This document shows, piece by piece, positions 24,558 through 63,100 of a stretch of DNA of 64,000 bases. The DNA comes from a virus: the IMG/VR virus record IMGVR_UViG_3300033146_004399, positions 115,367 through 179,366 of that record; one strand, given 5' to 3'. Both the position numbers and the translations under genes were made by a program. Below the pieces are notes generated by a model, which worked only from the letters and a program-made list of their open reading frames with translations, made no database searches and was not told the origin of the DNA. Every line of letters begins with the position of its first letter. Positions within the stretch are counted from its first letter, which is position 1.

Positions 24558-25136
24558 ATGGCATATCGTTATAAACGTATAAAGATTAAATGGAATCAGA
24601 AAGACAAAAAATTCCATAAAATTAAAAGAAATAGAGTTAAGTCAAGAAAGGCACATATAAATTTTATTAGAAATAGAGGTAAGATGAGGTTAGCTTTACG
24701 AAAAGCTCGTATTAAGGGTAAGGTAACTATGCGTAAAAATAAAGGTAAAGGTATATTTAGAAAGTTAAAGATTGCTAGAAGAAGGTGGAAAAATATACTA
24801 AAATCAGATATAAATCTTGATTCCTTTTTAGACGGAATGATGTTAACAGAAGAACAAATATATGAAAAAGCAGATGCTCCAGTATTAGAGATAGGTGTTG
24901 CTGATATTGAATCTATGTATCTTGCACTAAAGAATATAAGAGATGATGTTGAATTCAAAGGGAAAGATGATAAAAAAGCATTTCAAGAATGGATTGATAG
25001 CTCTTTAGAAATATTACATATATTGAAAGGAGAAGACGATGAAATATCAGAAATAGATGAAGATTTTATAGAAGAAGTTTTATCTTTTATAGAACAATAC
25101 GCCGAAAAGGCTGGATTGATGGATGAAGAAGAATAA
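24558..25136 (+). CDS. Protein with basic N-terminus and acidic C-terminus (possibly head/core associated)
   Basis: Arg/Lys-rich first ~80 aa, LTEE site, acidic tail. Confidence 0.55.
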   Translation: MAYRYKRIKIKWNQKDKKFHKIKRNRVKSRKAHINFIRNRGKMRLALRKARIKGKVTMRKNKGKGIFRKLKIARRRWKNILKSDINLDSFLDGMMLTEEQIYEKADAPVLEIGVADIESMYLALKNIRDDVEFKGKDDKKAFQEWIDSSLEILHILKGEDDEISEIDEDFIEEVLSFIEQYAEKAGLMDEEE

Positions 25137-26931
25137 TTTATTAGGTTATGTTTTACTATTTTTAGGTGTTCTTGTATTTGTTTTTATTGCAATGCTATTT
25201 TATTCACATTCATACAACGCAACATTATTTCGTAAAGATATATTTTTTAGAATAAAAACATTACCTGGCATAACATCTTTTATTGTACAAACTATAGTAT
25301 TAACATCATTATTGCATACTATATATTATATATTTCAACGACAGAAAAAACAAAATTACACAATATTAAATAATATAGCTCAACCAATTATTATTTGTAA
25401 TTTATCTGGGAGTATTAAATATGCAAATAAATTTGCTCAATCCTTTTTTGGCTATATTAAAGATGAAATATATAGTCAAAATATATTTAATTTTATAGCT
25501 GAATACGATAAGCAGCGTGCTTACTTAAATGTTAAAGAAGTGAAAGACAACAAAATTGCAACAGTAAATAGTTATAATGTATTAACTGCAGATGGGGATT
25601 GGGTGGAGTGTACAGTTCATACCTCATTTCATTACGGGAAATTATTATCAACGTTTATAAACCAATCTGATACGAAAACTATAGAAAAAAAACAAAAAGA
25701 ACAAACAGAATTTTTATGGTCTTTATTAAATGATATACCAGTTCCCTTATCGTATTTAGATAATAATAATATTTTTAAATTTGTTAATAAATCATATTGT
25801 AAATTAATGGAGCAGAACGAACAAAATTTTTTGGGGAATAATTTATTTGATGTGTTCAAAGATATTGCGATAAACGAAGCAAATCTTGAATATATTAAAG
25901 AAAGCCAAGAAAGCTCGGAATACGAAGAAATTAGATTAATTGGTAATCGTAAAAAAATATTAAAACTTGTTGTTACACCTAAGATTGAAAATAATATAAC
26001 AGTTGGTACTTTTACAGCAATAATAGATAAAACCAAAGAACGAAAGTTAGAAATATTAAATAAAAAAGAAATAAGATTGAATATCATCTTTGCTAAAATA
26101 TTAACAATTTTAGTTTCATCACCAATAAACATACGTGATACTTCTATAGATAAATCATTAGATTTAGTTCGAAAGGCACTTAACATCGATAAATGTTACG
26201 TTATACAATTAGATGATTCTGCTGTTGTAGCATATGAAGCTTCAGGCGTAGGGCTTAAAGAATGTAAAGGTTATATGGTACATTTAAGTAATCAACAACA
26301 AAATTTTACAGAGGTAAAACAATTAATTATACCAAATCTTTCAGTTTCTCAGTTTAAAAATTTAAAATATTATAAAACTAATGAAGCTCGATCTGTAGCT
26401 GAAATATTAATACCTAAAGATAATATGTTTGGAAGTGATATCATTATAGGTGCAATGACTTCGTTTAAACATAAAAATTGGCAAAAAAATGAAATTAATT
26501 TTATTCAATCTGTTGGTAAAATAATTTCAACTAGTATCGAAAGAAAACAATATATACAAGAATTAAAATATAGCGAAGATACCCTAAATATTTTAGTTGA
26601 TAATTCAAACATAGGGTTTTTTATACATACACTTGAAGACGAAATAGTATTTATAAATAATAAAACGAAAGAACTTTTTGGTTATAAATTAGAAGAAATA
26701 GAAAGTATTCTTTTTATACAAGATAATATAGTTTTGCCCGAGTATCATGAAACAATTAAAAATATGATGAAATTAGCAGAATTAAAAGGTCAAGCTTCTG
26801 GATTTATAAAAATAAAAAATAAAAATGGTAAAATATTTTCCGTAGAAATACATATAAAATCTATAGATTATGAGACTTCTAAAGCATATTTATATACAAT
26901 GATAGATGTGAGTAAATATATAGGAGATTGA
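25123..26931 (+). CDS. Membrane-anchored PAS-PAS-GAF-PAS sensor protein with no output domain
   Basis: Two TM segments; PAS (ILNNIAQPIIICNLSGSIKYAN..FFGY; LLNDIPVPLSYLD...FVN; LVDNSNIGFFIH...FIN...LFGY); GAF (SLDLVRKALNIDKCYV...W...E..F...V...I). Confidence 0.75.
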   Translation: MKKNNLLGYVLLFLGVLVFVFIAMLFYSHSYNATLFRKDIFFRIKTLPGITSFIVQTIVLTSLLHTIYYIFQRQKKQNYTILNNIAQPIIICNLSGSIKYANKFAQSFFGYIKDEIYSQNIFNFIAEYDKQRAYLNVKEVKDNKIATVNSYNVLTADGDWVECTVHTSFHYGKLLSTFINQSDTKTIEKKQKEQTEFLWSLLNDIPVPLSYLDNNNIFKFVNKSYCKLMEQNEQNFLGNNLFDVFKDIAINEANLEYIKESQESSEYEEIRLIGNRKKILKLVVTPKIENNITVGTFTAIIDKTKERKLEILNKKEIRLNIIFAKILTILVSSPINIRDTSIDKSLDLVRKALNIDKCYVIQLDDSAVVAYEASGVGLKECKGYMVHLSNQQQNFTEVKQLIIPNLSVSQFKNLKYYKTNEARSVAEILIPKDNMFGSDIIIGAMTSFKHKNWQKNEINFIQSVGKIISTSIERKQYIQELKYSEDTLNILVDNSNIGFFIHTLEDEIVFINNKTKELFGYKLEEIESILFIQDNIVLPEYHETIKNMMKLAELKGQASGFIKIKNKNGKIFSVEIHIKSIDYETSKAYLYTMIDVSKYIGD

Positions 26932-29086: not shown

Positions 29087-30127
29087 ATGTCATTCAGTAA
29101 AAAGGTTGTAATCGGTGCAGGTCAATGTGGCACCCGACTTGCAAGCAAATACGCTCTTGATGGAGATAAACTCATCGCCTTCAATACAGACAGTAGAGAT
29201 TCAGGCGGAGAGAATATAGCCAATGACCATATTCTTGTAGAAGGTGGAGCTGGCCAGAATTATTCAAAAGGTTTAAAAATATGGTCTCAACAAAGAGAAC
29301 ATGTAGAAGAAGCTTTAAAAGATATAAATGAAGAATATGTAGTATATTTTATTTCTGCTGGAGGCGGTTCTGGTTCATCCTCTGTTATAACAATTCTAAA
29401 TATTCTCCTAGAGCAGGAGAACAAAATTTTATTAGTAGTTGCTCTTCCCTTTCTTAAGGAATCAATTCCAGCAACGTCAAATGCAACTCGGCTCTTAAGT
29501 AAAGTTGCAGAATTTTCAAACAATATGTCTGTCCTTCTTATGGCTAATGATGAAATTGGTAAGCAGGTTGGGAGTCTATCATTTGATAAAATCAATGATG
29601 AGATTGTACGTAAGACTCGTATCATTACAGATATAATAAATCTTCATAATGATAAATATTTTACACCATTCGCGATAGACGAAGGAGATCATTCCTCTGT
29701 AGCTTTCTCTGGTGGTTTTATAAACCTCTCATTTGACTCTTTATACCAGGAAGTCGAAGGTGAGATGAAAATTAAAAGTCCTAAATTTTCTTATGGTTCA
29801 ATAAAAGAAGCAAGTAATATTCTTATTGTTAAAAATATTCCCACAAATAGAAATCATACTGAAGCTATGAAAGAAGGCGACTCCCTTGTTCAAGCTGCCA
29901 TGAAAGTTTCTTCTTCTGGAAAAGGTGCTAGAACATTATATGGTGCTATAAGGACAGATAAGAATGTAGCAGAATATACAACAATCGCTTCCGGTATTGG
30001 TATAGATAAAATCTTTAATAAAATGAAGAATAAAGCTACCAACTCTGCAGTTCAATATATTGGTAAAGTTAAAACTAAAACTAAGAAGAAGCTGGAGAGA
30101 AAAGAAGACAGAGTATTGGACATATAA
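29087..30127 (+). CDS. Tubulin/FtsZ-family GTPase (PhuZ/TubZ-like)
   Basis: VIGAGQCGTRLA, AFNTD, GGAGQN, signature SAGGGSGSS, VALPF. Confidence 0.85.
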   Translation: MSFSKKVVIGAGQCGTRLASKYALDGDKLIAFNTDSRDSGGENIANDHILVEGGAGQNYSKGLKIWSQQREHVEEALKDINEEYVVYFISAGGGSGSSSVITILNILLEQENKILLVVALPFLKESIPATSNATRLLSKVAEFSNNMSVLLMANDEIGKQVGSLSFDKINDEIVRKTRIITDIINLHNDKYFTPFAIDEGDHSSVAFSGGFINLSFDSLYQEVEGEMKIKSPKFSYGSIKEASNILIVKNIPTNRNHTEAMKEGDSLVQAAMKVSSSGKGARTLYGAIRTDKNVAEYTTIASGIGIDKIFNKMKNKATNSAVQYIGKVKTKTKKKLERKEDRVLDI

Positions 30128-33330: not shown

Positions 33331-33636
33331 TAATAGATACACTAAAATATTCTTCTTGGTAATAACTGCCACAATTGCCAGTACATAGTAGATGACAAAA
33401 TAAAACGTATGAAGAGTAAAAAAGTATATAGCATGAATTATATTTGCTCTAAGTGGAAACAGGCTAGAAATGAAAATATTTTAGATCGTAATTATTATAG
33501 AAATAAATACGTTGAAGATAGAGAGTTTATAAATTTAGTGGTTGAAGTTAACAGGTTATTAAAAAAAAAGAACAAAGGTAAAGTGAAAAAAATACCAAAA
33601 AAAAACATTAAAATAAGTTATTGTACGGAAAGATAA
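33323..33636 (+). pseudogene. Frameshifted AKxLL-CxxC family gene (listed ORF 33409..33636 is its 3' part)
   Basis: The frame of 33409 extends upstream as NILLGNNCHNCQY; it joins GTG 33323 (MFDNRYTK) if one A is added to the A4 run at 33344-33347. Confidence 0.5.
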
Positions 33637-33876: not shown

Positions 33877-35013
33877 ATGCATGGGACGATAGAGAAGAAG
33901 GAGATGATAACAATATTTAATATGAATATTTATAAAGATAAATTTATTAAACAATCAAATAAAATACATAATAATAAATATGATTATTCTTTAGTTAAAT
34001 ATGTAAACATAAGAACAAAAGTTAAAATAATATGCCCAGAGCATGGGGTATTTGAACAAAGAATTTATCATCATAGATCTGGAACTGGTTGTCCAAAATG
34101 TTCTGCAGACCATTCTGAAAACTTTAAAAGTATTGTAAAAACTATTCAAGAATTCAATAAAGAAGCTAATAAAATACATGATAATAAATATGATTATTCT
34201 TTGGTTGATTATAAAAATAGTCAAGATAAAATTAAAATAATATGTCCAGAGCATGGGGTATTTATACAACAAATGAACGCTCATTTAAAAGGTCAAGGTT
34301 GTTCTAAGTGCAGTCATAAGCATAAATATACAACCAAAGAATTTATAAAAAAAGCTAAAAAAATACATGGAAATAAATATGATTACAAACTTGTTTGTTA
34401 TAAAAATTCTGACACTAAAATTAAAATAATATGTCCAGAACATGGTACATTTATACAAAAAGCAAATAATCATATAAATGGGCAGGGTTGTCCTAAATGT
34501 GCTAATAATATTTTGTATTCTAAAAAAGAATTTATTGATAAAAGTAATAAAATACATGGTAATAAATATGATTATTCTTTAGTTGATTATAAAAATAATA
34601 AAACTAAGGTTAAAATAATATGTCCAGAGCATGGGGTATTTATACAAAAGCCATATGCTCATTTACAAAATCGTGGATGTCTAATATGTAATGAGTCTAA
34701 GGGTGAAAAAGCTACTGCTAAATATTTAAAAGATAAAAATATACAATATATAAGAGAATATAAATTTAATGATTGTAAAGATAAAAATTTATTACCATTT
34801 GATTTCTATATACCAAGTAGTAATATATTAATAGAATATGATGGAGAACAACATTACAAACCGATTGAACATTTTGGAGGCATTAAAGCGTTTAATAAAT
34901 TAAAGTATCGGGATAATATTAAAACTAAATATTGCGAAAACAATAATATAAAATTAATAAGAATAAAATATAATCAAAATGTTAAAGATATTTTGTTAAG
35001 TGAAGGAGTCTAA
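33877..35013 (+). CDS. Homing-type endonuclease with four KYDYS...ICPEHG repeats and a PD-(D/E)XK domain (likely start 33922)
   Basis: Repeats HGxKYDYSLVxY...KIICPEHG.F.Q...H..G.GCPxC; LPFDFYIP..ILIEYDGEQHY. Confidence 0.85.
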   Translation: MHGTIEKKEMITIFNMNIYKDKFIKQSNKIHNNKYDYSLVKYVNIRTKVKIICPEHGVFEQRIYHHRSGTGCPKCSADHSENFKSIVKTIQEFNKEANKIHDNKYDYSLVDYKNSQDKIKIICPEHGVFIQQMNAHLKGQGCSKCSHKHKYTTKEFIKKAKKIHGNKYDYKLVCYKNSDTKIKIICPEHGTFIQKANNHINGQGCPKCANNILYSKKEFIDKSNKIHGNKYDYSLVDYKNNKTKVKIICPEHGVFIQKPYAHLQNRGCLICNESKGEKATAKYLKDKNIQYIREYKFNDCKDKNLLPFDFYIPSSNILIEYDGEQHYKPIEHFGGIKAFNKLKYRDNIKTKYCENNNIKLIRIKYNQNVKDILLSEGV

Positions 35014-39350: not shown

Positions 39351-40786
39351 TGAATGAACCTGTATGTAACGTAAAAAAATGTCCATATTATCAAAGCTTT
39401 TTCAAACCAAATGAATTGATACAAAGTTATGTAGATATATTTATGGATAAGGGTAAAACAGCACATGCTTATCAAGTTGTTAGTAGTGTTAAGGGTATGT
39501 GTCTTGCATGTATTCACTTTCAGAAAAAAGATATACCTAATCTATTGACAGTAGCAGAAGCTTTATATCATTTAAAAGAAGATAATAATGAGGAGTAATA
39601 TATGACCCCAGAAGAAATTGAAGCGAGATTTCTTGCTCTTGAGAGAGATAACAAGAAGTTGAATAAGGATAATAAAGCTTTTATAAAATTAATAAATGAT
39701 CATGCTGGCTATATAAATAAAAATGCTACTACTATGAAAGGCATAGATAAATATATAAGAACGGAATTACAGCGTGTAGCCGCATCAATTAGAAAACTTG
39801 CAAATAGGAAAGTTAGATGAGTGAAGCTAAAGATAAAAGAATAATTGATGCATATATGAAAAAGCACCCTGATGCTTCCATACAGAAAATTGAATCTTAT
39901 GCTCAAAAAAAGGGTATCCATATTACAGTTATGCCTCAAACTGAACATCAAAGATTAAAAACAAAAATGATGAAAGATGCTGGTCTTGATGCTAATTTAG
40001 ATTTAGGAAAAGAGAGTGATCAAATTAAACTATTGGAAGCTGTTAATTCTCTTCCTAAAGAAAAACAATCTGAGTTTTTAGCGATGATGAAAAAATGAGT
40101 ATTCAAGGTTTAGCTATGGCACTCTTATCAAATCATGTTTGTGATAATTGCGATAATCAAACTTACCTTATATATAATGATTCTGATATTGGATGTTGGG
40201 AAAGTATGTCAAATAATCCTGTAGCTAGATGCTCTTTAAAATTGAAGCAAGGAACAAATAAACATAAAACTTGTCCAAGAGTAAATACTTGTAAAAAATG
40301 GAGCCCAATAATTGAAAGATAAAATTTATGTTCTCGGACCTAAATCTTCAGGTAAAACTACATTCATTCACAAATTAATGGGAAGAGATTATGTAGTTTT
40401 CAAAGATAAAGTAATTGAATCAGGGGAAAAGATAAAGCCTGATGATGCGATTCAAATTTATCTCATTTTCCCTAATCCAGATGAATTAAAAAATCGTGGT
40501 GGGGATATAACAGATGAAGAAATTGAAGAATGGATGACTTTTTACTATTCCAATGTAAAGGATATAACAATTGTTGAAGATTTTTAATAAAAAGAAAATT
40601 GCTGAAAATATAGAAAAAACTGGTAGTGAATATTTATGTGATAGTTGTCGCTATTATTCTATAGCATGTGATCCTTATTGTACTATATTAAGAATACCTC
40701 TTTATAATAAAAAATATAAATGTCAATATTATATTAATAGTTATAGAGAGAAATGTCCAGATAAGGTGGAAAATCCAAATGAGTGA
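39350..40786 (+). other. Run of small hypothetical genes (39350, 39602, 39817, 40095, 40312, 40571), several Cys-rich; 40312 has a P-loop
   Basis: Overlapping start/stop codons; CxxC motifs; GPKSSGKT in 40312..40587. Confidence 0.6.
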
Positions 40787-41975: not shown

Positions 41976-42152
41976 ATGACTGATAGCGCTGCAGCAATCT
42001 CCCACCTCCTAAACAAAAGTTGTGCCAATTGTATACATTGTATACAAGAATCGTCTGTATTCTGTACTTTTAGAATGACATCACCCTCAGCTTTCACATG
42101 TGATAAATGGAAAAAATTTACAACTTTCACGTGGAATTTAACACCTAAATAG
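41976..42152 (+). CDS. AKxLL-CxxC family small protein (58 aa, below the ORF track cutoff)
   Basis: ISHLLNKSCANCIHC...C...TCDKW. Confidence 0.55.
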   Translation: MTDSAAAISHLLNKSCANCIHCIQESSVFCTFRMTSPSAFTCDKWKKFTTFTWNLTPK

Positions 42153-42954: not shown

Positions 42955-43201
42955 TAAAAAGAAAATAAAGAATGCTAAAGAAGAATTTCAGAGAGACTTC
43001 AAAGAATTTATTAGAGACCTCCTATTTGAAGATACTGGTTCTGCTCTTGGAAAAGCACATAGATTTATTAAACCTTTTTTAGACAGTGGATTAGTTGACA
43101 GTTTTGGGTTTGACGTAAATAAAAGCGGGACTACAAATACTCTTATAAAATATACAGATGGTGATTCTATAGCTTATACACTCTTCGATGAACAGTCCTA
43201 A
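42947..43201 (+). CDS. Small protein with possible sheath C-terminal-like segment
   Basis: LLFE...FIKPFL..G.V..F..D recalls the gp18 C-terminal domain. Confidence 0.35.
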   Translation: MFNKKKIKNAKEEFQRDFKEFIRDLLFEDTGSALGKAHRFIKPFLDSGLVDSFGFDVNKSGTTNTLIKYTDGDSIAYTLFDEQS

Positions 43202-43451
43202 AGCTGCTAAGAATATATTAGCAGGGAAAAGCTGCTATGATTGTAGATTTTTTAAGAATGATAAATGCCGTTACGGAAATTTATCGGAAGAATTATGGTG
43301 TGATCAGTGGGATAGTCCAAATGGTGCTCATAAGTTACGTGTCAATTGGACCAAGGAATCTGAAAAAGATATTAAAGCTTACCGTGGACTAAATGTTGAA
43401 GAAGAATTAATTAAAGCTGTCCAAACAGAAATAGATAAGGAGTTGAAATGA
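43188..43451 (+). CDS. AKxLL-CxxC protein fused to a major capsid fragment
   Basis: KLRVNWTKESEKDIKAYRGLNVEEEL...EIDKEL aligns with this window's capsid KLKAMWSQESEQDLKAYHGLSADAEL...EIDREI. Confidence 0.75.
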   Translation: MNSPKAAKNILAGKSCYDCRFFKNDKCRYGNLSEELWCDQWDSPNGAHKLRVNWTKESEKDIKAYRGLNVEEELIKAVQTEIDKELK

Positions 43452-43930
43452 TATATGATAAAAGAATGGATGCTTTATTAACACAATATCGTAATAAACT
43501 AACAGATTCACTTGAGTCAGTAACGACGCCAACTACAGAAAGGAAGGTGAGAGTTAATACTCCTTACGGATATGAATATAAAAGTAAGATGGTAAAATTT
43601 AAAAGATTGGATTGGAAAGGCACTCCAATTAAATGGGGTTTCAATGATGCAGAAGCAGAATTTAATACTAATAATTTTGAAGAACATTTTGTAGTAGCAG
43701 ACAGAAAACGTATGGATAAAATCATGGCTCACACTTTTAAAACTTTTGATAGCTATATAGATAAAGAGGTGGCTAAAATCCTTTTAGAAGGACACTCTGC
43801 ATTCTTCAATTATCGTGATGCAATAGATGTTACTGTTGAAGTTACAGAGAGTTGTGTCTCTCCTAAAGGAAATTGTATTACCCATATTATTCTTAAACCT
43901 TCAATAACTATAGCGGTTGAAGATGGTTGA
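43448..43930 (+). CDS. Hypothetical protein, C-terminus possibly sheath-like
   Basis: IDVTVEVTESCVSP...HIILKPSITI recalls the gp18 C-terminus. Confidence 0.4.
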   Translation: MIYDKRMDALLTQYRNKLTDSLESVTTPTTERKVRVNTPYGYEYKSKMVKFKRLDWKGTPIKWGFNDAEAEFNTNNFEEHFVVADRKRMDKIMAHTFKTFDSYIDKEVAKILLEGHSAFFNYRDAIDVTVEVTESCVSPKGNCITHIILKPSITIAVEDG

Positions 43931-44162
43931 GGAAGCCAAAAACATCCTTATAGGGAAAAGTTGTTATGATTGTGCATATCTACAAAAAAATAATATATGT
44001 AGTATTGATTCTAAAATAATACCTGAAGAAAAAAGTTGTCCCAGTTGGTCTCCACCAAGTGAGAATTTAATAGAAAAACTAAGAGATCAAATAGTGGCAG
44101 TAGTAGGTGTACCAAAGGAGTATTTATATGGAAAGAAAAATAATGGAAGCATGGCACGATGA
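43917..44162 (+). CDS. AKxLL-CxxC protein fused to a portal-like fragment
   Basis: LRDQIVAVVGVPKEYLYG versus portal FKDQILRTMGIPTGYLGG. Confidence 0.6.
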   Translation: MKMVEEAKNILIGKSCYDCAYLQKNNICSIDSKIIPEEKSCPSWSPPSENLIEKLRDQIVAVVGVPKEYLYGKKNNGSMAR

Positions 44163-45245: not shown

Positions 45246-46359
45246 ATGTTTAATACTACAGTTCAAGAAATAAATTCCCTGGATAATTTAGATGATTTCT
45301 ATAAAGTAACTAAAGCAATTGGTCTCTCAATTGGGAAGAAGGTTGATTATGTTCAAGCTCCATCCTTCTATACAATGGTTAAGGGGGCTGAATTTGAACT
45401 TGTTTCAGAGTATAGACAAGTAAGACCTTATCAATATAACTATCTTGGTATAATATATCTTTTTTACGCTCATATGGATAGGGATGTAATATACATTCTT
45501 GCTACTCGATATAGTCGTAAAGATATAGTATATGATATTAAAATAGATATTGAGAAGGTTAAAGAAGAAAAAATAGATGATGATTATATGAAGGCGCTTA
45601 TAGAAGTTGATGAGTTCCTAAATGGTGAATATATAGATAGGGAGTTAAATATTGGATGAAGAAATAATAGCAAAATATTTATTAGTTGGTGATACGATAA
45701 TTGATCTTATTAAAAAAGATGCAGATATGTATTATTCATGGCAAGCAAATATAGCAGTAGCATTTCAAGATGAGTATCACCGTAATAATAAGAAATATAA
45801 AAATAGAAAAGATATTCATAAAATTGCTAATGAAGCCGCAAAGCATTTTTTAGACTTATTAATAAGGAAATAAAATGGATAAAGATTACAACGGTATCAT
45901 GATTAAGAAGTATCATATTGAAGAAGAGAATGTACGAGAACAAGTATTTGAGAATGTATCACTTTCCTCCCTAAAAGTATCTCAACTAATTTGGATGTTA
46001 GTAATTTGAAGTATAAAATATCACTCATTAAAAATCAAATAGAGAATATATATCAAACAAGTATTAAGCCCCTCGAAGATGAGATCAAGCAATTTAAAGT
46101 GGATATTAAAAATATAAAAAAAGACAGGAAACAAAACGTTGATACTAAAAGAATTTTAAAAATTATTGATCAAGCTGTGAGTCAAAATCCTGATAATATA
46201 GTATTAAATACTAAAAGATTGCTATTGGATGGAAGCGCAGACTTTATGATTAATCTTAATAAAATTGATGAATTAACAGAAAATGAGAAGGAAGAATTAT
46301 ATGAACAGTATGTATATGAATTCAAAGTTATGGCTGGAATAATACAACCGAAAATGTAA
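45246..46359 (+). other. Hypothetical genes 45246-45659, 45652-45873, 45991-46359
   Basis: Packed ORFs; 45652 has IIAKYLL and SWQANIAVAFQDE. Confidence 0.55.
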
Positions 46360-46411: not shown

Positions 46412-46921
46412 ATGTTATTAAAATTTGTAAAGACAAGAGAAGTAGAAAGTCCAAATAGAGGACACGCAACAGATGCAGGAATTGATTTTAGAATGCCTGA
46501 GTTTAGTGATGAATTTAGAGAAAGTATTCATAATAATGACGCGAATACTGGCTCATATTTTGATGGGGATAAATTAATTATACCTGCCAACTGCAACACC
46601 GTTATTCCATCAGGTATAAAAGTTGAAATACCATTTGGTTATATGGGGATGTTTGCAGATAAAAGTGGAGTGGCATCTAAAACTGATTTAATAGTAGGCG
46701 CAAAAATTATAGATACCTTCTATTCAGGTGAGGTACATATCGATCTTCACAATATTGGTAAAAGTGAAGTTCGTCTTGAAGCCGGACAAAAACTGGCTCA
46801 GATGATTTTGATTCCCATCTTAAATTGTGATTTAACTGAAGTTGGTGAAGATCAGCTATATGATTGGATGAAGCCAGATTCTATAAGAGGCGAGGGCGGA
46901 TTTGGCTCTACTGGTAAATGA
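46412..46921 (+). CDS. dut: Trimeric dUTPase
   Basis: AGIDF, KSGVA, IIDTFYSGE, KLAQMI, RGEGGFGSTG. Confidence 0.92.
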   Translation: MLLKFVKTREVESPNRGHATDAGIDFRMPEFSDEFRESIHNNDANTGSYFDGDKLIIPANCNTVIPSGIKVEIPFGYMGMFADKSGVASKTDLIVGAKIIDTFYSGEVHIDLHNIGKSEVRLEAGQKLAQMILIPILNCDLTEVGEDQLYDWMKPDSIRGEGGFGSTGK

Positions 46922-48494
46922 CGGAATTGTATAATATTGTTGCCAGCAATATAATAGCTGGCAAACAATGTATAAATTGTGTATGGTCTAAAAAAGCCAC
47001 TCCTGGATTTATACATTGTTTAAATGATAAAGACTATAAAGATTCTATAGGTACTAATGATATAAGTATAAAAGATTACGCTAAAACTATTTTATGGAAG
47101 GAGACGTATTCTTGTGAATGTTGGCACGGTGGTGAGAAATCTCCTCCTAGAACATAATTGTAAATGTTCTGAACGGTTTGCATCCTTATGTAATTGTGGC
47201 GCAAGAGCTATTATAGATTAAAACAATAGTTACTAACGGAATATCAAAAGATGAGAGAAATTTGTGAAGAATGGGATTCATAGTATAATTAAAAAAGTAA
47301 AGCCGGAGAATACATGTGGAAAGTGGCAAAGTAACAGATAGGAAGAAGTGTAAAAACTGTATCTATATAAGACGTAAAAGAAACAAATTTTATTGTTCTA
47401 ATAATATTCAAGTTACTAATATAATAGGTGTAGATATTGTTACAGCGTCTAATTTATTAGCTTCAGGCGGGAAGGTACAAATTGATGAGGACGGAACATG
47501 TGAATACTGGTCAGATTGCTAAAAATGTTCTCCTAGAGAGAATTTGTGATAATTGTACTCATTACGTCGATAACGATTTTGACGTTGGTGGAATATGTAG
47601 AAAAAATAGTCTCGACCTACCTGGGAAATCTATACCTAAGGAAAATACCTGTCTTGAGTGGAAAGAAGGTTTCCGCCTTGAAATTAAAATGACATCCATC
47701 CCCATAACAGTTAAAGCAAGGAAATTGAAGATTAAATGGACTAAAGATGCTGAGTAAAAATGAAAAAGCTAAAAATATTCTTATAGGGAAAGTGTGTAAG
47801 AATTGTATATATAAACATCCGTATAAAGATTATTATTGTTTCTTCTATGATATTAGAATATTTAAAAATATATGTAAGGACTTTAAATATAATGACAGAT
47901 GACATCCTTGCTAAGAAACTTTTAACTCGCCAGGAATTAAAATCAACCATGTTATACAGTGTGGATAGAAATAGTGTAACAGTTTATGATTGTCCGGCTT
48001 GTAGAGAAGACCATATAGACGCTTAAGTCTTATGTGATATGAAGGGACATTTTTATATAAGGTGCCCTAATACAGGTTTAAAAATTGTTGGTGTCTATGC
48101 ATAATTTATTTTATGGAAAATCATACTAAAGCTAAACATCTTCTTTTAAATCATAATTGTTATAATTGTGATTTCTATTTTAAAAAGTTTAATAATTGTA
48201 TGATGTTAATGATTAAGGAACATGTAACTAAAGAGAAGGCAATTTTGCCGAGAGAGTTAATTTGTGACAATTGGAATAATGAGCAACAACAATAAGATCG
48301 TAGCGGAAGCTAAAGCGTTATTAGCTGATAAAAATTGTAAAAATTGTAAATTTAATTTAATCCATGCTAGTTGGAATGCAATGAACCTGGAAGAGTGCGG
48401 CTGGTGGTATCATAATGACAGAGGGAGCAAAAAGTCACTTAATCCTCCGCCAGTAAAAGAATACGGAGCTTGTAAGTTATGGAAACATGTTTAA
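46918..48494 (+). other. Cluster of AKxLL-CxxC small genes (46918, 47316, 47482, 47747-47902, 47892-48104 interrupted, 48113, 48264)
   Basis: Shared AKNxL.GK.CxxC...C...CxxW pattern. Confidence 0.7.
47482..47757 (+). CDS. AKxLL-CxxC protein fused to a major capsid fragment
   Basis: IKMTSIPITVKARKLKIKWTKDAE aligns with capsid ITIGNIPVAVKTRKLKAMWSQESE. Confidence 0.75.
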   Translation: MMRTEHVNTGQIAKNVLLERICDNCTHYVDNDFDVGGICRKNSLDLPGKSIPKENTCLEWKEGFRLEIKMTSIPITVKARKLKIKWTKDAE

Positions 48495-48583: not shown

Positions 48584-49396
48584 ATGAAAAGATTATTTAG
48601 TATTTTAATTCTCATAGTATTAGTATTTGCTGGCTGTGAAATGAATACACTCATTGTAGATGAAGGCTTTAGTCTTTTAGGCTTTAGTCTTATAGCGGAA
48701 GGAGTAAGCGCTGATTCTTCTGCGAGAGGGACTTCATCTAATGGTTTAAAATTAGCTTTTAGATCTTCAGATATTGAATTTTGGGCAGCTGGTGATAATT
48801 ATACAAACTTAATTTCTACAAAATTTGTAAGTGGTGGGGTTACAGATAAAAATGAATCAATTGAAATTAGTTTATCTGATACAGCTGAGAATGTAGTATT
48901 TATGCCTAATAAAGTTCATATTGAAAGAGGTTATGAGATGCCAAATTTCGATATGAATAAAGTATATAATATCGTACGTATGGATATCGGAAGTGGTCAG
49001 CTTACCTTAACTATGAACGGAAATCCAGTTAATGCATCAAATTCAACACTCAGTAGTACAAGTCTTAACGCAAACAGTATAGTGTTAGTTGACAGAAATA
49101 TTATGCATGAAGCTCATTATATCTCAAGACTCGAAATGCGTAATATTAACGATTATAATTATAACGTTGATGATGATTTTATAAAAGAATTTAATTCAAA
49201 TATAGGTAGTATAGACGTGGACGGTGCTTTATTTCTTCCTTTTGATTCAATTGATTTTGCTGGTAAAAATAAGGCTAAGAACGTTCATATAAGACTTAAA
49301 TGGAATATGGATGATATATTTGACATGGATAATGTGCTTAAAGGTACTGCTGATGGCACTCCATATGATTTTAGTGTTGAGGTAGAGATTAACTGA
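48584..49396 (+). CDS. Predicted lipoprotein
   Basis: MKR + hydrophobic stretch + lipobox VFAGC. Confidence 0.75.
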   Translation: MKRLFSILILIVLVFAGCEMNTLIVDEGFSLLGFSLIAEGVSADSSARGTSSNGLKLAFRSSDIEFWAAGDNYTNLISTKFVSGGVTDKNESIEISLSDTAENVVFMPNKVHIERGYEMPNFDMNKVYNIVRMDIGSGQLTLTMNGNPVNASNSTLSSTSLNANSIVLVDRNIMHEAHYISRLEMRNINDYNYNVDDDFIKEFNSNIGSIDVDGALFLPFDSIDFAGKNKAKNVHIRLKWNMDDIFDMDNVLKGTADGTPYDFSVEVEIN

Positions 49397-49415: not shown

Positions 49416-49438
49416 AAGACACTCATTAAGAGTGTCTT
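49416..49438. terminator. Conserved hairpin AAGACACTC-N5/6-GAGTGTCTT (copy 1)
   Basis: Between convergent genes with flanking A/T runs; near-identical copies at 53351, 53660, 55323. Confidence 0.7.
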
Positions 49439-49818: not shown

Positions 49819-51552
49819 TCATTTCACTTCTCTCATCATAGATTCAATAAGACCAGTACCACGTTCTTTGCTTCTTTTTACTGATTGATGATAATTACCT
49901 CTCCAATGTCGTACAATTCTTTCTTTATAATCTAGATTATCAGGATCTTTAGTTTCTTTTTCTTTTTTTGGATTATTAGTTTTTGTATCAATCTCAGTAA
50001 AGAATGATTTAATAATGAGTGGTATATCTTTTATCTTCTCTTTATACCCAATTTCTAAGTGATGAGTTATTTTCCCATTCATACCAATCTTTGATATAAC
50101 TCGTCTTAGATGATCTTTATACTTCTGTTCTTGGAATTTAGCATTTGTTTTATGCCAATATTTTACTTTCTTATAGTGTTGCTGCCCATGGTATTCTATA
50201 AATACGTTAAATTTCGGCATGAGCACTATAAAATCCATCCTTTTATTTCGACCAGTATCTGGTAATTTTTTATCAGCAGAGAGACTATTAATATCAAATG
50301 GTTCTTCTTTTTTTACGTATTCAGTATATTTATCTTTAAACTTGTTTAGAAGTGCATTTGTTATAGCGTGTTCACCTAATGATTCTTTTTTAGTTACTAT
50401 ATCTTTTGCTGATAGATCATTTTTACCATCTGCGTCCTTTTGAAATTTAAATGTATATCCGCTAACAGAATAACGCTCAGTACTTAATACAGATAATATT
50501 TTTTTATAATCTATATTTAATTTTTCTCCTGCTTCTTGGACATTATCATATTCATTTTTGTATTTACCGTTTATAGATTCATATGCACATACGGGTTCAA
50601 CTAAAGTAAGTTTTGCACAATTTGGACAACCATGACCTTCTACAGCATGACCTTGAATCGTTTGAGTAATTTCACCAAATCTCTCATGACCATGTTCGTG
50701 ACATATATATCTTAATTTAGAATTTTCTTTATTAACAGTACTTGAAGTGGCTCGTGCGTATTTTGGTATAAAAGTATATTCATAGTTCTTATCACCATGT
50801 TTTTCTTGACATAATTCTTCTACTTTTTTTCTTCCCATGGCTTTTTTATCAGCAAGGTGATTTTTAGATTGTTGATAAGACATAGAATTACCTGATACCA
50901 TAACTGGATATTCTTCGCCTGTATCATCATTAATAAATACAACATATTTTTTTTTATTAGTTTTCTCGCCTTTTTTCTGTAATTCATCTCTTTTTTTATT
51001 ATATCTACCTGTAAGAGGTTCCCATGGTGTTGTACCATTACTTCTCCAATAACCAGCATACATTTCATTATTATGTAACTTAACACGGTTCCAATCTTTA
51101 AAAAACTTTTTATCTATTTTAAGTTTAAATTCTTCCCACGGTATTGTTCCGTATTTTTTTTCTTTTTGTCTTGTACGTGTTACGCCTATTAAATTACGTT
51201 CGCTTCTTCTTTTCGCGGCATCTCTTTTGCTAAGAGATCCTTTACTTAAATGAGTTGAGAACGTTTCTGGCGTTTGTTTTTCACCATCAACATAATATAA
51301 AACTTTTCTGGTTCTTTCAACACCTGGTGTTTTCGGGGCTATCCATTTCTTAAATTCTTCGTCTTTTACACTCCATAATCCGTCATTAGTATTTGGATTA
51401 ATTTTATATTCTATCCTTTCCCATTCCCAACCTTTTTCCAAACATCTCTTTTTAAATTCAGGTTCAACTTGAGTTGCCCAACACTGTTTTATACCCGGTA
51501 CTGATCCAGTTTTTTCATTTAATTGTTGATTCATATTTTCAAGTATTTTCAT
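49819..51552 (-). CDS. Large endonuclease-like protein (zinc motif, NUMOD-like segment, C-terminal PD-(D/E)XK)
   Basis: CHEHG...GHGCPNC; RMDF...FIEYHGQQHY. Confidence 0.65.
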   Translation of the reverse strand: MKILENMNQQLNEKTGSVPGIKQCWATQVEPEFKKRCLEKGWEWERIEYKINPNTNDGLWSVKDEEFKKWIAPKTPGVERTRKVLYYVDGEKQTPETFSTHLSKGSLSKRDAAKRRSERNLIGVTRTRQKEKKYGTIPWEEFKLKIDKKFFKDWNRVKLHNNEMYAGYWRSNGTTPWEPLTGRYNKKRDELQKKGEKTNKKKYVVFINDDTGEEYPVMVSGNSMSYQQSKNHLADKKAMGRKKVEELCQEKHGDKNYEYTFIPKYARATSSTVNKENSKLRYICHEHGHERFGEITQTIQGHAVEGHGCPNCAKLTLVEPVCAYESINGKYKNEYDNVQEAGEKLNIDYKKILSVLSTERYSVSGYTFKFQKDADGKNDLSAKDIVTKKESLGEHAITNALLNKFKDKYTEYVKKEEPFDINSLSADKKLPDTGRNKRMDFIVLMPKFNVFIEYHGQQHYKKVKYWHKTNAKFQEQKYKDHLRRVISKIGMNGKITHHLEIGYKEKIKDIPLIIKSFFTEIDTKTNNPKKEKETKDPDNLDYKERIVRHWRGNYHQSVKRSKERGTGLIESMMREVK

Positions 51553-54341: not shown

Positions 54342-55337
54342 TTGACTATGGAATATACAAAAGAATTGTTTGAAGATTTATATATAAATAAAGGTATGAG
54401 TATGAGACAAATTGCCACCCATTTAGATTTGGGTAAAGGTATGGTTGATTCATATATTAGAAAATTTGAAATACCTAAGCGTTCGAGAGCTGAATCTATA
54501 ACCAAACGATTTGAGAATACACCAAGAAAAAAAACAAAACAAAAGCCTCGTAAGAAAACGGCGCGACCCTGGCAAACGTATGAGCTAACTGAAGACAATT
54601 GGGAAATACAAGAAATAAACTTACGTGCAGATAGAAAAGGTGTAAAATGTTTATTTATAGATGGAGAGAGAGTAAGAGGAGATGATAGGGTATCATTTAT
54701 ATGTAAGCAAACTGGTGAAGAGGCTGAAAGACGTGTTTTCCACTTCATACAAAATCCGACCTTCTTATCAAAGAGTGCAGTAACTAGTAATACCTCCAGA
54801 GGTAGAAAACAAACTGAGGAAGCAAAAAGAATTATTGGTGAAAAGAATTCCGGAGAGAGGATTGATACATATTTTGATTTTACGTGTCCAGTATGTGGGG
54901 AAACATTTAAGTATAGAGATATTCAACGAAATAGAATAAAAAAATATTGTAGTAAAGAATGTCAAAAAACTGCATTTGTTAGTGCACCAGAATTTAAAGG
55001 TAAAATGAATAAACTTGAAGAATACTTTTGTACCATCCTTGACAGTATGGGATATAAATATAAAACACAGCATTTAGTAAAGTATTACATGGTTGATTTT
55101 TTCTTTGAAGACAAAAATCTTATTATTCAAGTAGATGGAGATTATTGGCACACAAACCCAGTGAAATATCCAGAAGGGCCAACAAGTGAAAGACAAATAC
55201 AAAATTTTAAAATGGATAAGAAATTTAAAAACTATATAGATGAATATACAAATTACAATGTAATGCGAATATGGGAAAGTGAAATAAATGGTGATGTAGA
55301 AAAAGTTAAAAGGAAAATAAAAAAGGCACTCAATTAA
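54342..55337 (+). CDS. Free-standing Vsr/DUF559-like homing endonuclease with HTH and zinc finger, convergent on the capsid gene
   Basis: N-terminal HTH, CPVCG...YCSKEC, YMVDFF...IIQVDGDYWH, VMRIWESE. Confidence 0.8.
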   Translation: MTMEYTKELFEDLYINKGMSMRQIATHLDLGKGMVDSYIRKFEIPKRSRAESITKRFENTPRKKTKQKPRKKTARPWQTYELTEDNWEIQEINLRADRKGVKCLFIDGERVRGDDRVSFICKQTGEEAERRVFHFIQNPTFLSKSAVTSNTSRGRKQTEEAKRIIGEKNSGERIDTYFDFTCPVCGETFKYRDIQRNRIKKYCSKECQKTAFVSAPEFKGKMNKLEEYFCTILDSMGYKYKTQHLVKYYMVDFFFEDKNLIIQVDGDYWHTNPVKYPEGPTSERQIQNFKMDKKFKNYIDEYTNYNVMRIWESEINGDVEKVKRKIKKALN

Positions 55338-55384: not shown

Positions 55385-56936
55385 TCAGGGTAAATCCTTA
55401 ATATCAATCTGAGTATATAAAAGTTGTCCATGAGGAACTTGAGTCAATCCATATCGTGCTAAGAAACCACGTCTTGGGTTAAAATCATTTTCACCCACGA
55501 ACAGGTGTGAGGTTAGTTACATATGGACTATAGACCAAACCAGCGCCAAAAGGAGACTGAGGAGATTTGTGACCCATAAGAATTTTGTCATCTGGAAACA
55601 TAGGATCTTTATAGATATCATATCGACCAGCATAAGTACCGGCTTTAACAATATTCATACCCATGGAAGCAGTAACAGGATTAGGAATGAAGCCTTTAAG
55701 AACTTCAATATAAGAAGCAACTTTAGTACCAACAATCATCCAGTTAGCAGGACCAATTTTTGATTTTCTGAATACTTCATTACTAGCTCTAGTAACTTTT
55801 TGCATAAGAGCTAAGTGAGCATCAAGGTAATTACCTGATGTGTTGTTCTGAGCAAAAGAATTCCAGTCATAAGTAAAGCGTGAAGATGCAGGAACAAGAG
55901 TCATAACTTTTTGAATTATCTCTCTGTCTATTTCAGCAATCATTTCGTTAGAAACAAGAGCTGTAAGTTCAGCATCAGCACTTAAACCATGATAAGCCTT
56001 TAAATCTTGTTCAGATTCTTGTGACCACATAGCTTTGAGCTTACGAGTTTTAACAGCAACAGGAATGTTACCGATTGTGATTCTCATCTCAGGAATTTGT
56101 TCTGTAAATTCAAGATCAGTTTTGTACCAAGCTTTAATAGCAGTTTCAGCACCAGCTTGAGCACCATTGTAAACAACTTTAAGATTTCCAGCAGCATAAG
56201 TGATAGTAAAATCACCGTTTAAAGAACCAACTCTATCAGCGCTTCTTACTTGAAAGTTAGTAGCATCAAGTGAAGAGAAGGAAAATGTTTCTGAGAAATC
56301 ATCAGCACCAGTTAATTCAATAGTACCAAGAATCATAGCTGAATTTTCAACATTAACAGCACCGGCAGTTGCCTGCATTGGCCAAATGTTTTGAATAGCT
56401 GTTTTAGGAGCAGCAGAAATAACACCATTAAAAGTTCTAGGTGGAAGTACATCAGGGTTGATATCAATGTCTGCGTCAGCACTACCAACAGCAGAACCAG
56501 AGAAAGGTCCAATTTCGTCGGTGGAGTAGTAAGGATTATATCCTTCCTGAGCACCAGCTTGTTCTTCAAACATAGAGTATTCAGGATAATCAGTACCTGT
56601 ATAACCACTAGCTGGGTTACCTGGTCTTTCTGTTCCCATCTGATACTTTAAGTAAAAGATGATACCTGCAGGAGCCGCAATTGGCTGTACAGATACAATG
56701 TTATTTGCAATTAAGTTAGGGAATACACGTCTAACTATAGGAAGCATGATTTTTTGAAGACCTTGTACATCACCTTGAGTGGTTGCACCAGGAGCTTCTG
56801 TTAAATATTTTGCTTCATTTTCTAGAAGAATAGCAGTATTTTCTACTGTATATTCATCTGAGATACCTTCGAGAAATGGTGACCATTTCTTAAGAAGTCT
56901 ATCTTTTTCTTCTTTCATTAATCTTTGAGCGTCCAT
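55385..56936 (-). CDS. gp23: Major capsid protein (T4 gp23-like) with an apparent frameshift near 55497-55502
   Basis: LLKKW, TAILLEN, VRRVFPNLIA..IVSVQP, TRKLKA.W..E..QDL.A.HG; the conserved tail VGENDFNPRRGFLARYG...DLP* lies in another frame (55498-55385). Confidence 0.9.
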
Positions 56937-60192: not shown

Positions 60193-63100
60193 TTATTTAC
60201 TCATCTTCACCTTTTCGTTTAATGTGCGCTGTATTTTATTTGAGCTTCTATAGGCTTTTAATAAACCCCTAAATTCTCCCTCAATGATCATTCGGGTTGC
60301 ACTATTCTTTTGCTCATATTTTATCTTGTCACTATTATTATCTTTATGTACTTTTTCGTAAAGATTAACATATTTTAATAATTTTTCAACATCTTTATTG
60401 CTTTCAAAGAGCCATTTACCACCATCAAACTCTATAAAATTGGCTCCAGCAACTTCTAATCCTGCTTCTCCGCCACCAGCAGGAGGTGCTTCACCGCCAG
60501 CAGGTGCTTCTTGCCCTCCCATTCCACCTTCAGGAGGTCCACCAGCTGCTCCGCCAGAAGCTCCACCACCCATTATATTGCCACCAAGATTTCCACCGCC
60601 AGCCATATCCATTCCTCCACCAGCAGATGCACCAAGATTTTGCATTTGAAGTTGCATCTGCATTTGCATTTGAATTTGCAATCTAATCTTCTGTATTTCT
60701 TGTTCAGACATACCAAGTATTTCTTTGTAAATCCATTCATCAGGTAAAAAGTTCTCTAACGTTCTAACTTGTTGTATAAGGGCAAATTGTTGATTTCTTA
60801 TCTCTATTTCCATTAACTGGTCTACATTAGATGGAGGTGTTAATTTAATTTTAAAGTCTCTTATTTCTTTAGAATCTATTTTTGAAAATACCAATTCAAT
60901 AAGAGCAATTTTTTCTAAACCTTTAATAATTAACTTCTGTATTCTTTCTATAGTTCTTGAAAATTGAACTTCTTGATTGGAGAGATACGATTTAGGGTCA
61001 TATGTTCCTGCACCAGCATCAGATGAATTACCACCAAGGTAACCAGTAGGAATACCCATAGTTCTTAATATTTGATCTTTGAAATATTTAACATCATCTA
61101 TCTCACCTAAATTTTGCCCACCAGGAAGTGTCTCAATTCTTGTCCCTTGACTATTCTGCCTTACGGGAATATAAAAGTCTTCGTCAACCGAATTATGAAC
61201 AAATACACCAGCTTCAGTTGCAAAGTTGTGATACTTCTCGATAGTTATATCACCAGTATCTTCTTTATAATCAAGCCATTCTATTTTAGTGACTTTATGA
61301 TTTTGATAATTTGACTGTTTAGATAAAAGTCTCAATTCTTTCCACGATTTCAAGCTCAATTTGTTTAAAATATTATAGTATTGCTTTCTACTAATTTCTT
61401 CTTGTAGTATAAAGTCTTGCATTTTATTATACTCAGAAGCTTTATCTAAGCAAATTGTTTCTATATTATCTAATCTTTGTGTTATAGAACTTAATACATT
61501 ATAATTATTTCTGATTAATACATTTTTTATGTATGTATATAAAAATCCGTTTTCTTTACAAAAGTTTGTAATTTCGTGTGAATATATTATAGCATTTTTT
61601 GTAAAATGTTGATCAATAACAAGTAATGTTTCTTCTTCCTTTTTTTTCATTTTTTCTTGAAATTTTTGAGTAGCAAGTTTTGTGTTTGGTGTTCTAAGAC
61701 TTTTAGTTTTTACTCCGCAAACTTCTTTTAACCACTGTTCGGAAGATTCATATCCTATTTCTCTCATAGCTTTTACAATAAAATGTGCATTAGGACCATT
61801 TACTTGTTTATTTGGTTTACAAAAGGTTTTCCATTCTTGCATCAATTTATTGTTGTTACACGCATTTTCCATAACATTAACGATAGATATATAGCCTTGA
61901 CTATTTGGCTGTGTTTCTTGTGCTATATTTTTCAAAAGAGACCAAAATTTATTTGTGACTTTATTTCTTATGGTCATCCCATTGATATATTTTTGTCTTA
62001 ATTTTGGATCAGAGAATTGCTTTTTCATATTTTTCGATCTTATATCGTTATAAATGTAAGACATATTTTGATGTAATTTTCTATGATTACTAAATGACAT
62101 TACTTTTAAATTATTAGGAGTATTGTTTAATTTATTAAAATCTTTGTGATGAATCGTTTTATTATTGTTAAAAGATGTAAATTTTCTATTTTTCCAATCA
62201 TCATACATATTTCCTACTAATCTGTGAGTATATTCATATTTACTAGTTTTTGGATTATATATTTTTTCATAACCATCAATTTTATCCCTATCTTCTTTAG
62301 AAGACAGTTTAGTATAGAATGGCATTAAAGCTTGTCCGTTTTTAAGATCTTGCGCTTCGCAATAAGAACCATCCCGCAACATAAATCTATGGTCTGGTGT
62401 TGTTCTCAATTCCTCGCCATTATCTAAAGTTACTTTAATTAATTTTGCATTCTTTCTAGTTACATCCGCCCATATAATTTTACCAGGTACTATTTGATTA
62501 TCATTTTCAACATCTATAGAATATGTCCAATTTTCATTACCAGATTTATATTCTTCAATCAATTCTGTTAGTGAAAGACTTCGACCATCTAAAAGTGGAA
62601 TTTTAGTATCTAAAGTTATACATAAAGGATTTGCCTTTTCATCTACTTCACCTGTTGTAGGATTAATAAATTTCTTTTTGCGGAATTGTCTTTTCAACGT
62701 TTCCATAAATTTATTAGCTTCTTTAGTTGGCATGGTACCGACATCTACATAAAATACTCTTCTCTCTGGAGCTCTTGATATTCTATATATAAGCATAGCG
62801 TCTTCCATAAGAGAAAGTTTTTTAAATGTCTTTCTGCCTGATTCTAATATAGAACGACCATATGGTTCAAATTCTTCATCCTCAATCCTGAAGTGAACAA
62901 TCTGCCATGGTTGAAAAACTCTATTTTCCTTCTCTTCATCTTCATATTCATATCTGAATTCAATAAGATTACCTTCCCTCTCAACTCTCTTCATATTCTC
63001 AGGTTTCTTAATTCTCTCCAAGGAGATTATATGTTTTGGATTATCTACGTTATCTACTATAACTTCAAGGAATTCATCACCTAATTTACAGGTATTTCTT

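Follow-up and report, generated by a model that had tools for sequence, protein, structure and literature searches.

Introduction

The Gol region, a 29-residue stretch in the first quarter of the T4 major capsid protein gp23 and the most conserved part of that protein, binds EF-Tu and licenses the Lit protease (PMC3014915). In this system (Gol/EF-Tu/Lit, prophage e14), a short linear capsid segment suffices to engage both EF-Tu and a defence protease. Bacterial defences read portal as well as capsid proteins (PMC3014915; bioRxiv 10.1101/2024.07.29.605636), and the two are among the main signals by which bacteria detect phages; how the parts of them that cannot change are protected is an open question.

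Two further groups of small phage proteins invite comparison. The DNA mimic Ocr, DSAD1 (which acts against DSR2) and nucleotide sponges are small accessory proteins from hypervariable non-structural regions, as is the protein described here, and they are believed to disarm sensors by mimicking a ligand or occupying the sensor; none of them copies the phage's own trigger protein, and for our protein a function can only be inferred. The capsid-targeting sequences of the T4 internal proteins IPI-III are short peptides, each of which directs a small protein to the assembling head. Unlike the tail described below, they are N-terminal, bind the scaffold core, are removed by the prohead protease and are not copies of the capsid protein.

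Here we describe a family of four-cysteine phage mini-proteins, some of which carry C-terminal tails that resemble segments of capsid or portal proteins. Gol belongs to the capsid protein proper and acts as a trigger, whereas the family's segments are separate gene products on a cysteine-rich carrier. Full-text literature searches turned up no account of phage mini-proteins made of pieces of capsid or portal proteins, and the four-cysteine family is undescribed. Because it displays invariant capsid and portal segments on a separate carrier, it offers a concrete and testable handle on the question raised above.

The gene and its genomic setting

The DNA analysed (the window, 64,000 nucleotides) is the final 64 kb of a single contig of 179,366 bp (virus record IMGVR_UViG_3300033146_004399, 30% G+C) from an uncultured T4-like phage. 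The features on which the argument rests are as follows.

43188..43451, + strand: gene for P0001, a four-cysteine carrier with a capsid-like tail, 87 aa (open reading frame of 87 codons from ATG)
43188..43313, + strand: four-cysteine carrier module, aa 1-42, with an N-terminal helix (AKNIL), C16, C19, C27, C38 and W41 (invariant columns)
43332..43445, + strand: core of the capsid-derived tail, aa 49-86: the end of a strand, a short helix (aa 56-66) and a long helix (aa 70-86) (BLASTP, shuffling, AF2, capsid HMM)
55491..56936, - strand: major capsid protein gene, gp23-type, 481 aa (Pfam Gp23 E 7.5e-65; T4 gp23 structures E 2.8e-25)
55917..56042, - strand: capsid residues 299-340 (T4 gp23 265-306), the source-equivalent of the P0001 tail, nearly invariant in 22 related capsids

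The P0001 gene overlaps both of its neighbours and so appears to belong to an operon: at its start it shares 14 nt with the end of the preceding open reading frame, its stop overlaps the ATG of the next one, and the AAGGAG of that downstream frame sits within its last codons. The same start codon is used in the relatives P0004 and P0022. The gene belongs to a + strand block of many small open reading frames (~23.4-49.4 kb) that also encodes a DnaB-type helicase, a PRPP synthetase, a dUTPase and a tubulin/FtsZ-like protein. A bidirectional terminator-like hairpin (49416-49438) divides this block from the head genes on the - strand, among them those for the capsid protein, the prohead protease and the portal; the capsid gene lies 12 kb from the P0001 gene on the opposite strand. 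P0001 is thus encoded in the non-structural arm (replication and nucleotide metabolism), away from and opposite to the head genes; its synthesis therefore probably precedes that of the capsid protein or does not depend on it. Scans for late promoters and sigma-70 promoters were uninformative in this AT-rich DNA, so that early expression is inferred from gene position only.

The P0001 tail resembles a P-domain segment of the resident capsid protein

The resident capsid protein is ~30% identical to the nearest capsid among GenBank phages and 45-68% identical to the capsids of 30 IMG/VR contigs, one of them 388 kb long. An earlier note on this DNA, made without database searches, had counted 16 identities in 33 positions between the C-terminus of P0001 and the capsid by hand, and the count is correct. 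By BLASTP, aa 49-86 align with capsid residues 299-340 with 19 of 42 positions identical and a single four-residue gap (E 5e-10). The note had asked that the alignment be set against shuffled sequences and controls for AT bias, and it withstands both. The Smith-Waterman score of the tail against the capsid is 93; 2000 composition-preserving shuffles of the tail score 27 +/- 4.3 (z 15.4) and none reaches 93. When 647 small six-frame open reading frames of the genome were compared with its 103 large ones, the capsid was matched only by the P0001 frame (4e-8) and by the frame at 47482 (8e-5). In the same comparison the frames at 42658, 42947 and 43448 matched none of the large frames at E<0.05, which lends no support to the idea that they contain pieces of tail-tube or sheath proteins.

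Profile searches give the same picture. Pfam Gp23 (PF07068) matches aa 45-86 at E 8.2e-5 over profile positions 145-186 only; at 22.6 bits this fragment falls just under the cut-off of 24.4 bits, which excludes P0001 from PF07068. With an HMM made solely from 22 real capsids of the phage's lineage, P0001 is matched at E 8.2e-9, and none of 3040 shuffled family proteins reaches E 0.01. Chance similarity is excluded by the shuffles, the genome-wide control and the capsid-only HMM. BLASTP, shuffling and this HMM likewise bear out the earlier note's central proposal, a cysteine-rich mini-protein fused to a diverged segment of the capsid P domain.

In the matched region, each residue of the resident capsid corresponds to the T4 gp23 residue plus 34, and residues 292, 306 and 307 of T4 gp23, the sites of gp31-bypass mutations, lie in the spine helix (PMC9546572). 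It is from these two points that we set the limits of the copied segment. The earlier note had placed it at the long P-domain helix; the first two thirds or so of the spine helix are indeed included, and in addition the segment takes in the end of a P-domain beta-strand and a short helix. Judged by sequence, then, the tail of P0001 shares ancestry with three P-domain elements of gp23: the strand, the short helix and the spine helix.

The AF2 model of P0001 (pLDDT 85, with values of 87-92 in the cysteine module) places a coil at residues 42-55 and helices at 56-66 and 70-86. These helices parallel helices 306-316 and 322-347 of the capsid model, of which only the secondary structure was used because the model is poor (pLDDT 50). 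The P0001 helices are confident and the pTM is low (0.47), a combination that fits a tail that is predicted to be displayed and not packed. Fold searches with the model gave no significant match. T4 gp23 and gp24 (PF07068; PDB 5VF3, 7VS5, 1YUE) have the same predicted order of secondary structure, of which P0001 retains about 40 of about 480 residues, without the A domain, insertion domain or N-arm. With a match of 38-45 residues and only a coil and two helices in the model, the HK97-type fold is incomplete in P0001, which cannot form it.

At the nucleotide level the tail is only 54-58% identical to the capsid gene; the frame is kept, synonymous positions are for the most part scrambled, and the tail is therefore not a recent capsid copy. 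A recent copy of the resident gene is excluded both by this value and by differences at positions that are invariant in 22 capsids.

The four-cysteine module and its family

P0001 meets the criteria of a family of four-cysteine mini-proteins, namely an A-K-N-L-L helix followed by CxxC, C, C and CxxW. The Cys and Trp columns of the module are invariant in 16 paralogues and 147 relatives; scored residue by residue in the 147 sequences, C16, C19, C27 and C38 are invariant, and W41, A7, K8 and L11 are at least 90% conserved. A combination of tblastn and HMM searches located 16 modules in 15 open reading frames of the 179-kb genome, all on the + strand, with 12 copies in the window and four in tandem at genome positions 107.7-108.4 kb. 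The copies in the window include the following.

33346..33636, + strand: module copy (hmmsearch E 1.3e-6; the module precedes the first ATG/GTG/TTG, and the copy is absent from the seed alignment)
40095-40322 and 40571-40786, + strand: two tail-less module genes (module HMM)
41976..42152, + strand: tail-less module gene, 58 aa (module HMM)
46918..48494, + strand: six module genes (46918, 47316, 47482, 47747, 48113, 48264), partly overlapping (module HMM)

The copy at 33346-33636 has either an unusual start or is decaying. Between the tail-less genes at 40095-40322 and 40571-40786 lies an unrelated 91-aa open reading frame (40312-40587). Outside the window, one open reading frame (genome 108049-108438, + strand) contains two complete cysteine modules in tandem, which may reflect a fusion or an internal start.

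An exhaustive profile search over 1.84 billion representative proteins recovered at least 314 representatives of the family at E<=1e-3, almost all of 50-150 aa. Four related phage contigs have the module in 17, 38, 6 and 4 open reading frames; in the contig with 38, IMGVR_UViG_3300037086_000398 (G003, 114 kb), they sit within half a genome, and arrays at 5-9 kb and at 65-71 kb account for most of them. The module corresponds to no Pfam or PHROG family, so that hundreds of representatives, at up to 38 copies per contig, stand unannotated there whatever their function proves to be. The GenBank phage collection contained no relative of the P0001 module or of P0068. Scans for the genomic context of tail-bearing relatives returned no match in IMG/VR (with P0001, P0022, P0068 and P0079), in JGI metagenomes (with P0084) or in GTDB genomes (with P0079).

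The nature of the metal centre, if there is one, is less clear than the conservation of the module. The earlier note had called it a zinc finger; four cysteines and one tryptophan are invariant, yet zinc is not established. When compared with zinc fingers, the module has one CxxC pair and two single cysteines, and Pfam zf-CCCH matches at E about 0.1, far below cut-offs. A search of the family profile against all sequences of solved structures gave only seven matches, all of them HiPIPs and all weak (E 0.09-1.3), in which all four cysteines and the tryptophan of the profile are paired. Because the module resembles only HiPIPs among solved proteins, and these weakly, the zinc finger is unproven. 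HiPIPs (PF01355) share with the module the order CxxC, C and CxxW and an aromatic residue after the CxxC; the module differs in having shorter loops, no signal peptide and only weak scores. Other comparisons are no stronger: Pfam HIPIP is matched at E<=0.01 by only two of 147 family members, Foldseek lists the HiPIP 1hpi at a non-significant E of 6.5, and VIA-align lists HiPIPs at Z 2.1-2.4, also non-significant. A nearby viral Atlas cluster of 62-aa proteins is 36% PF01355. A small Fe-S knot is as possible as a zinc finger. We read residues 1-42 of P0001 as a small four-cysteine knot that serves as a compact carrier, its binding of metal being inferred from sequence motifs and the metal itself unproven.

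Capsid-like tails occur across the family and cover two capsid regions

Most module-family members end a few residues past the CxxW; many others have tails, and tails of unrelated sequence are common. The capsid-only HMM matches 14 of 152 family members at E<=0.01, in two separate regions of the capsid, and about one in ten module relatives carries a tail assigned to the capsid in this way. The major head protein is the sole Pfam or PHROG family that recurs in the module family. Region A tails (own capsid 59-98, equivalent to T4 90-129) were found in four members, P0069, P0072, P0079 and P0109; region B tails (own capsid about 283-340, T4 249-306) were found in ten. A profile search seeded with the region B members added P0155-P0162, among them clear P0001-type proteins, one of which occurs on ten contigs of up to 178 kb. 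The contigs behind tail-bearing relatives reach 178 kb for P0162, 187 kb for P0069, 250 kb for P0155 and 732 kb for P0079 and P0084.

We take Gol to occupy residues of about 93-122 in T4 gp23. The region A tails, which are almost exactly the Gol-equivalent segment, fit the description of Gol as far as an alignment can tell. The tail of P0001 differs in this respect, mapping to T4 265-306 and not to the Gol-equivalent stretch at about 90-130. In the capsid protein, the insertion domain lies between the segments of regions A and B, each of which falls within the P domain or adjoins it.

Within region B the extent of the tail varies in an orderly manner, relatives showing full-length, N-truncated and C-truncated versions of the same segment. 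The first 19 residues of P0004 are identical to those of P0001, and its tail aligns weakly with the spine helix alone (z 3.6; 13 of 2000 shuffles reach the score). A second tail-bearing paralogue in the window extends the coverage of the capsid.

47482..47757, + strand: second tail-bearing paralogue; probable true start GTG 47500, as in the relative P0007 (BLASTP, shuffle, HMM)
47677-47754, + strand: tail of this paralogue, aa 66-91, a copy of capsid 284-309 (BLASTP E 9e-7; shuffle z 9.8; capsid HMM E 1e-6)
56010..56087, - strand: capsid residues 284-309, of which the 47482 paralogue carries a copy (BLASTP, shuffle)

The segment in the 47482 paralogue is the capsid strand just upstream of the piece found in P0001, and the two pieces overlap by eleven residues.

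A third paralogue in the window points to the portal.

43917..44162, + strand: P0003 paralogue; probable start ATG 43923; module 48% identical to that of P0001 (pairwise comparison)
61018..61125, - strand: portal residues 803-838, which the P0003 tail resembles, about 23 residues past the C-terminal junction of the intein (pairwise)

The P0003 tail resembles portal residues 803-838 at a pairwise E of 8e-4, with z 6.1 on its own portal and z 6.4 and 5.2 on two related portals. P0043 maps to the same segment with z 7.7-7.8, on G004- and G005-type portals only, a hint that the subtype of a tail may follow that of the resident capsid or portal; P0078 maps there with z 3.5-3.9. This link rests on pairwise shuffle tests: a portal HMM built from five sequences found no family member at E<=0.01, and because it was not significant we regard the link to the portal as likely, though less strong than that to the capsid. 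The portal (gp20-type) gene itself (60193-63531, - strand) encodes 1112 aa owing to an intein at aa 312-780, which matches Intein_splicing at E 9e-22, shows a weak HNH_3 trace and ends in ...HN/S.

The tails have evolved as a lineage of their own. Of 18 tails, 17 are closer to another tail than to any sampled capsid, and motifs are common to tails on carriers that are only about 30% identical. The P0001 tail departs from the capsid at many positions that are invariant across 22 capsids; at one position, which is Ala in 25 of 25 capsids, all nine tails that reach it carry Ile or Val; and the tail helix shares an acidic motif (VEEELIK-like) that capsids lack. The earlier note had inferred selection from the intact reading frame and had named the absence of intact orthologues elsewhere as a result that would refute it. 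Orthologues with the tail do exist (for example P0022, P0160, P0156, P0157 and P0162), and in 55 pairs of P0001-type proteins the tail is nearly as conserved as the cysteine module (identity 0.38 and 0.43, respectively), as expected if that inference is sound; for seven of ten partners of P0001 the tail is the better conserved half. The tails being nearest to each other, carrying signatures of their own and evolving as slowly as the module, we conclude that they are selected and not debris. Together these observations indicate that the segment was captured long ago and has since been maintained under constraints unlike those on a buried capsid segment; residues 43-87 of P0001 belong to an old lineage of gp23 P-domain copies, re-surfaced with charged residues and under purifying selection. 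No donor capsid with the tail signature came to light when longer proteins were searched using just the tail, which is weak evidence against an unsampled donor lineage.

Four related contigs contained no capsid-like tails. Only some 10% of members have such tails; a relative that is 98% complete and has 17 module genes lacks them altogether, which implies that the tail is dispensable for the carrier's basic role.

Possible functions of the tailed carriers

The architecture itself is established: a carrier and a displayed peptide, under selection and encoded away from the head genes. For its function, we tentatively favour a mimic encoded in the non-structural arm that competes for a host factor or sensor of nascent capsid protein, a reading that we consider a serious possibility and still short of probable, binding and function both being inferred. 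The exposed tail would act by molecular mimicry of a conserved capsid segment. It would occupy the host factor or abortive-infection sensor that reads this segment on nascent or unassembled capsid protein, in a recognition modelled on that of the Gol segment of T4 gp23 by EF-Tu and Lit, and the bulky carrier might stop the complex of tail and sensor from signalling. Different tails could then form a panel of antagonists against different capsid- and portal-sensing systems.

Mimicry is favoured because the copied pieces are invariant parts of proteins that bacterial defences read, because the tails are tiled, linear and re-surfaced and do not preserve a fold, and because the module family behaves like an arms-race gene family. 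It is favoured also because one class of tail corresponds to the Gol-type segment, the one capsid peptide for which, as far as we are aware, a host protein partner is known. Several points stand against it. The main difficulty is that the Gol peptide alone activates Lit, so that a faithful mimic would be expected to activate a sensor and not to block it. The copied segment contains elements of inter-capsomer contacts, which fits a role in assembly equally well, and the small share of members with such tails and the purely positional basis for early expression count against mimicry too. The broader proposal, in which rapidly duplicating four-cysteine carriers tipped with capsid or portal segments (Gol-type, P-domain strand/spine-helix and portal motif, taken jointly) blind abortive-infection sensors early in infection as a modular system, is possible but on present evidence unlikely to hold as a whole. 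If true, it would be the first anti-defence family built from a phage's own trigger sequences.

Interference with, or docking onto, head assembly is the main alternative, doubtful but live. Here the tail would bind the capsid protein or the edges of capsomers in place of the P-domain strand and short helix, with the result that the phage's own head assembly is tuned or delayed, the heads of co-infecting relatives are poisoned, or the carrier is packaged in the prohead for injection. In the T4 head, inter-capsomer contacts are made by a short acidic P-domain helix and basic P-domain strands, and His282 and Met284 of the P domain, with Met98 of the N-arm, lie at the portal contact (PMC9546572). 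The segment copied in P0001 consists of a positively charged strand, an acidic short helix and the spine helix, and thus includes elements from these inter-capsomer and portal contacts, although the identity of the published short helix with the copied one is an inference, as the text gives no residue numbers (PMC9546572). The position of both capsid tail regions around the insertion domain would suit such a role, as would the existence of portal-segment tails, portal and capsid being assembly partners. Assembly is harder to reconcile with the location of the P0001 gene in the non-structural arm and not among the head genes, and with the lack of tails in most family members. The tails moreover swap buried small residues for charged ones, and Ala for Ile or Val, and the capsid packing surface is therefore not kept. 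If head assembly nevertheless proves to be the target, the family would represent a new class of head-assembly modulators or capsid-docking tags.

The bound partner might instead be a non-immune host factor that handles nascent gp23, titrated so as to reprogramme translation or folding before massive capsid synthesis; Gol-type tails would target EF-Tu, and tails of the spine-helix type would target GroEL together with the phage co-chaperonin. EF-Tu is bound by the Gol region, which may matter to how gp23 is translated and folded throughout the T4-like phages (PMC3014915); spine-helix mutants can dispense with gp31 (PMC9546572); and both types of tail are present in the family. We nevertheless think this improbable, for the GroEL as for the EF-Tu version: there is no binding evidence, the benefit of a stoichiometric binder of proteins as abundant as EF-Tu or GroEL is unclear, and portal-type tails are left unexplained.

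That the tail is tolerated junk, left when illegitimate recombination joined a module gene to a fragment of the capsid gene, is already disfavoured, and we give it little credence. The module family is certainly very dynamic, with tandem arrays and 38 copies in one 114-kb contig, and its many unrelated tails would be in keeping with chance joining. A neutral chimera does not explain, however, why the extent of the tail is the same in orthologues and in carriers about 30% identical, why it evolves as slowly as the cysteine module with its frame kept at 54-58% nucleotide identity, or why derived motifs are common among tails and two capsid regions and a portal region recur. Least likely of all, and very unlikely in itself, is a relic of a homing endonuclease or intein event that duplicated a piece of its target gene and stranded it beside a module gene: the genome is rich in homing-type endonucleases, the portal gene has an intein and the portal-like pieces sit just past its junction, but the P0001 piece is deeply diverged and separated by 12 kb from the capsid gene, which is on the other strand, the gene at 43188-43451 has no endonuclease gene next to it, the same type of tail occurs on many distant carriers, and no repeated regulatory cassettes were found flanking the mini-genes.

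Whether the partner is a sensor, as in the mimicry that we favour, or another protein, the tails mark capsid and portal peptides that matter to some partner, and the small size of the family's proteins brings direct binding, metal-content and co-structure experiments within reach.

Other features of the genome and its relatives

Several other short open reading frames also resemble head proteins. Just outside the window, an 88-aa frame without the cysteine module (genome 106436-106702, + strand) resembles portal residues 781-821 (pairwise E 6e-5); the likeness starts exactly at the C-terminal junction of the intein, and a frameshifted tandem duplicate follows. In G003, the frame at 88147-88455, which has no module, resembles N-terminal residues 12-87 of its own capsid (E 1e-5). 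In G004, a short frame beside a module cluster (46043-46180, - strand) resembles region B of its own capsid (E 7e-5) but lies on the opposite strand, and may be a decayed relic.

Two homing-endonuclease-like genes lie in the window (33877-35013 and 54342-55337, both + strand). One has four DUF723/treble-clef repeats and a Vsr-like C-terminus; the other, with a DUF559 domain, is the immediate neighbour of the capsid gene, on the strand opposite to it. In a third frame (49819-51552, - strand) there are only weak NUMOD matches below the cut-off. The + strand block is closed by a gene for a 270-aa protein (48584-49396, + strand) with a lipoprotein-like signal, a hydrophobic stretch followed by a cysteine, and no Pfam match. 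Finally, this 179-kb phage has a gene for a tubulin/FtsZ-family GTPase (29087-30127, + strand; Pfam Tubulin E 1.8e-10), which adjoins that of a 602-aa protein with multiple PAS domains (25123-26931).
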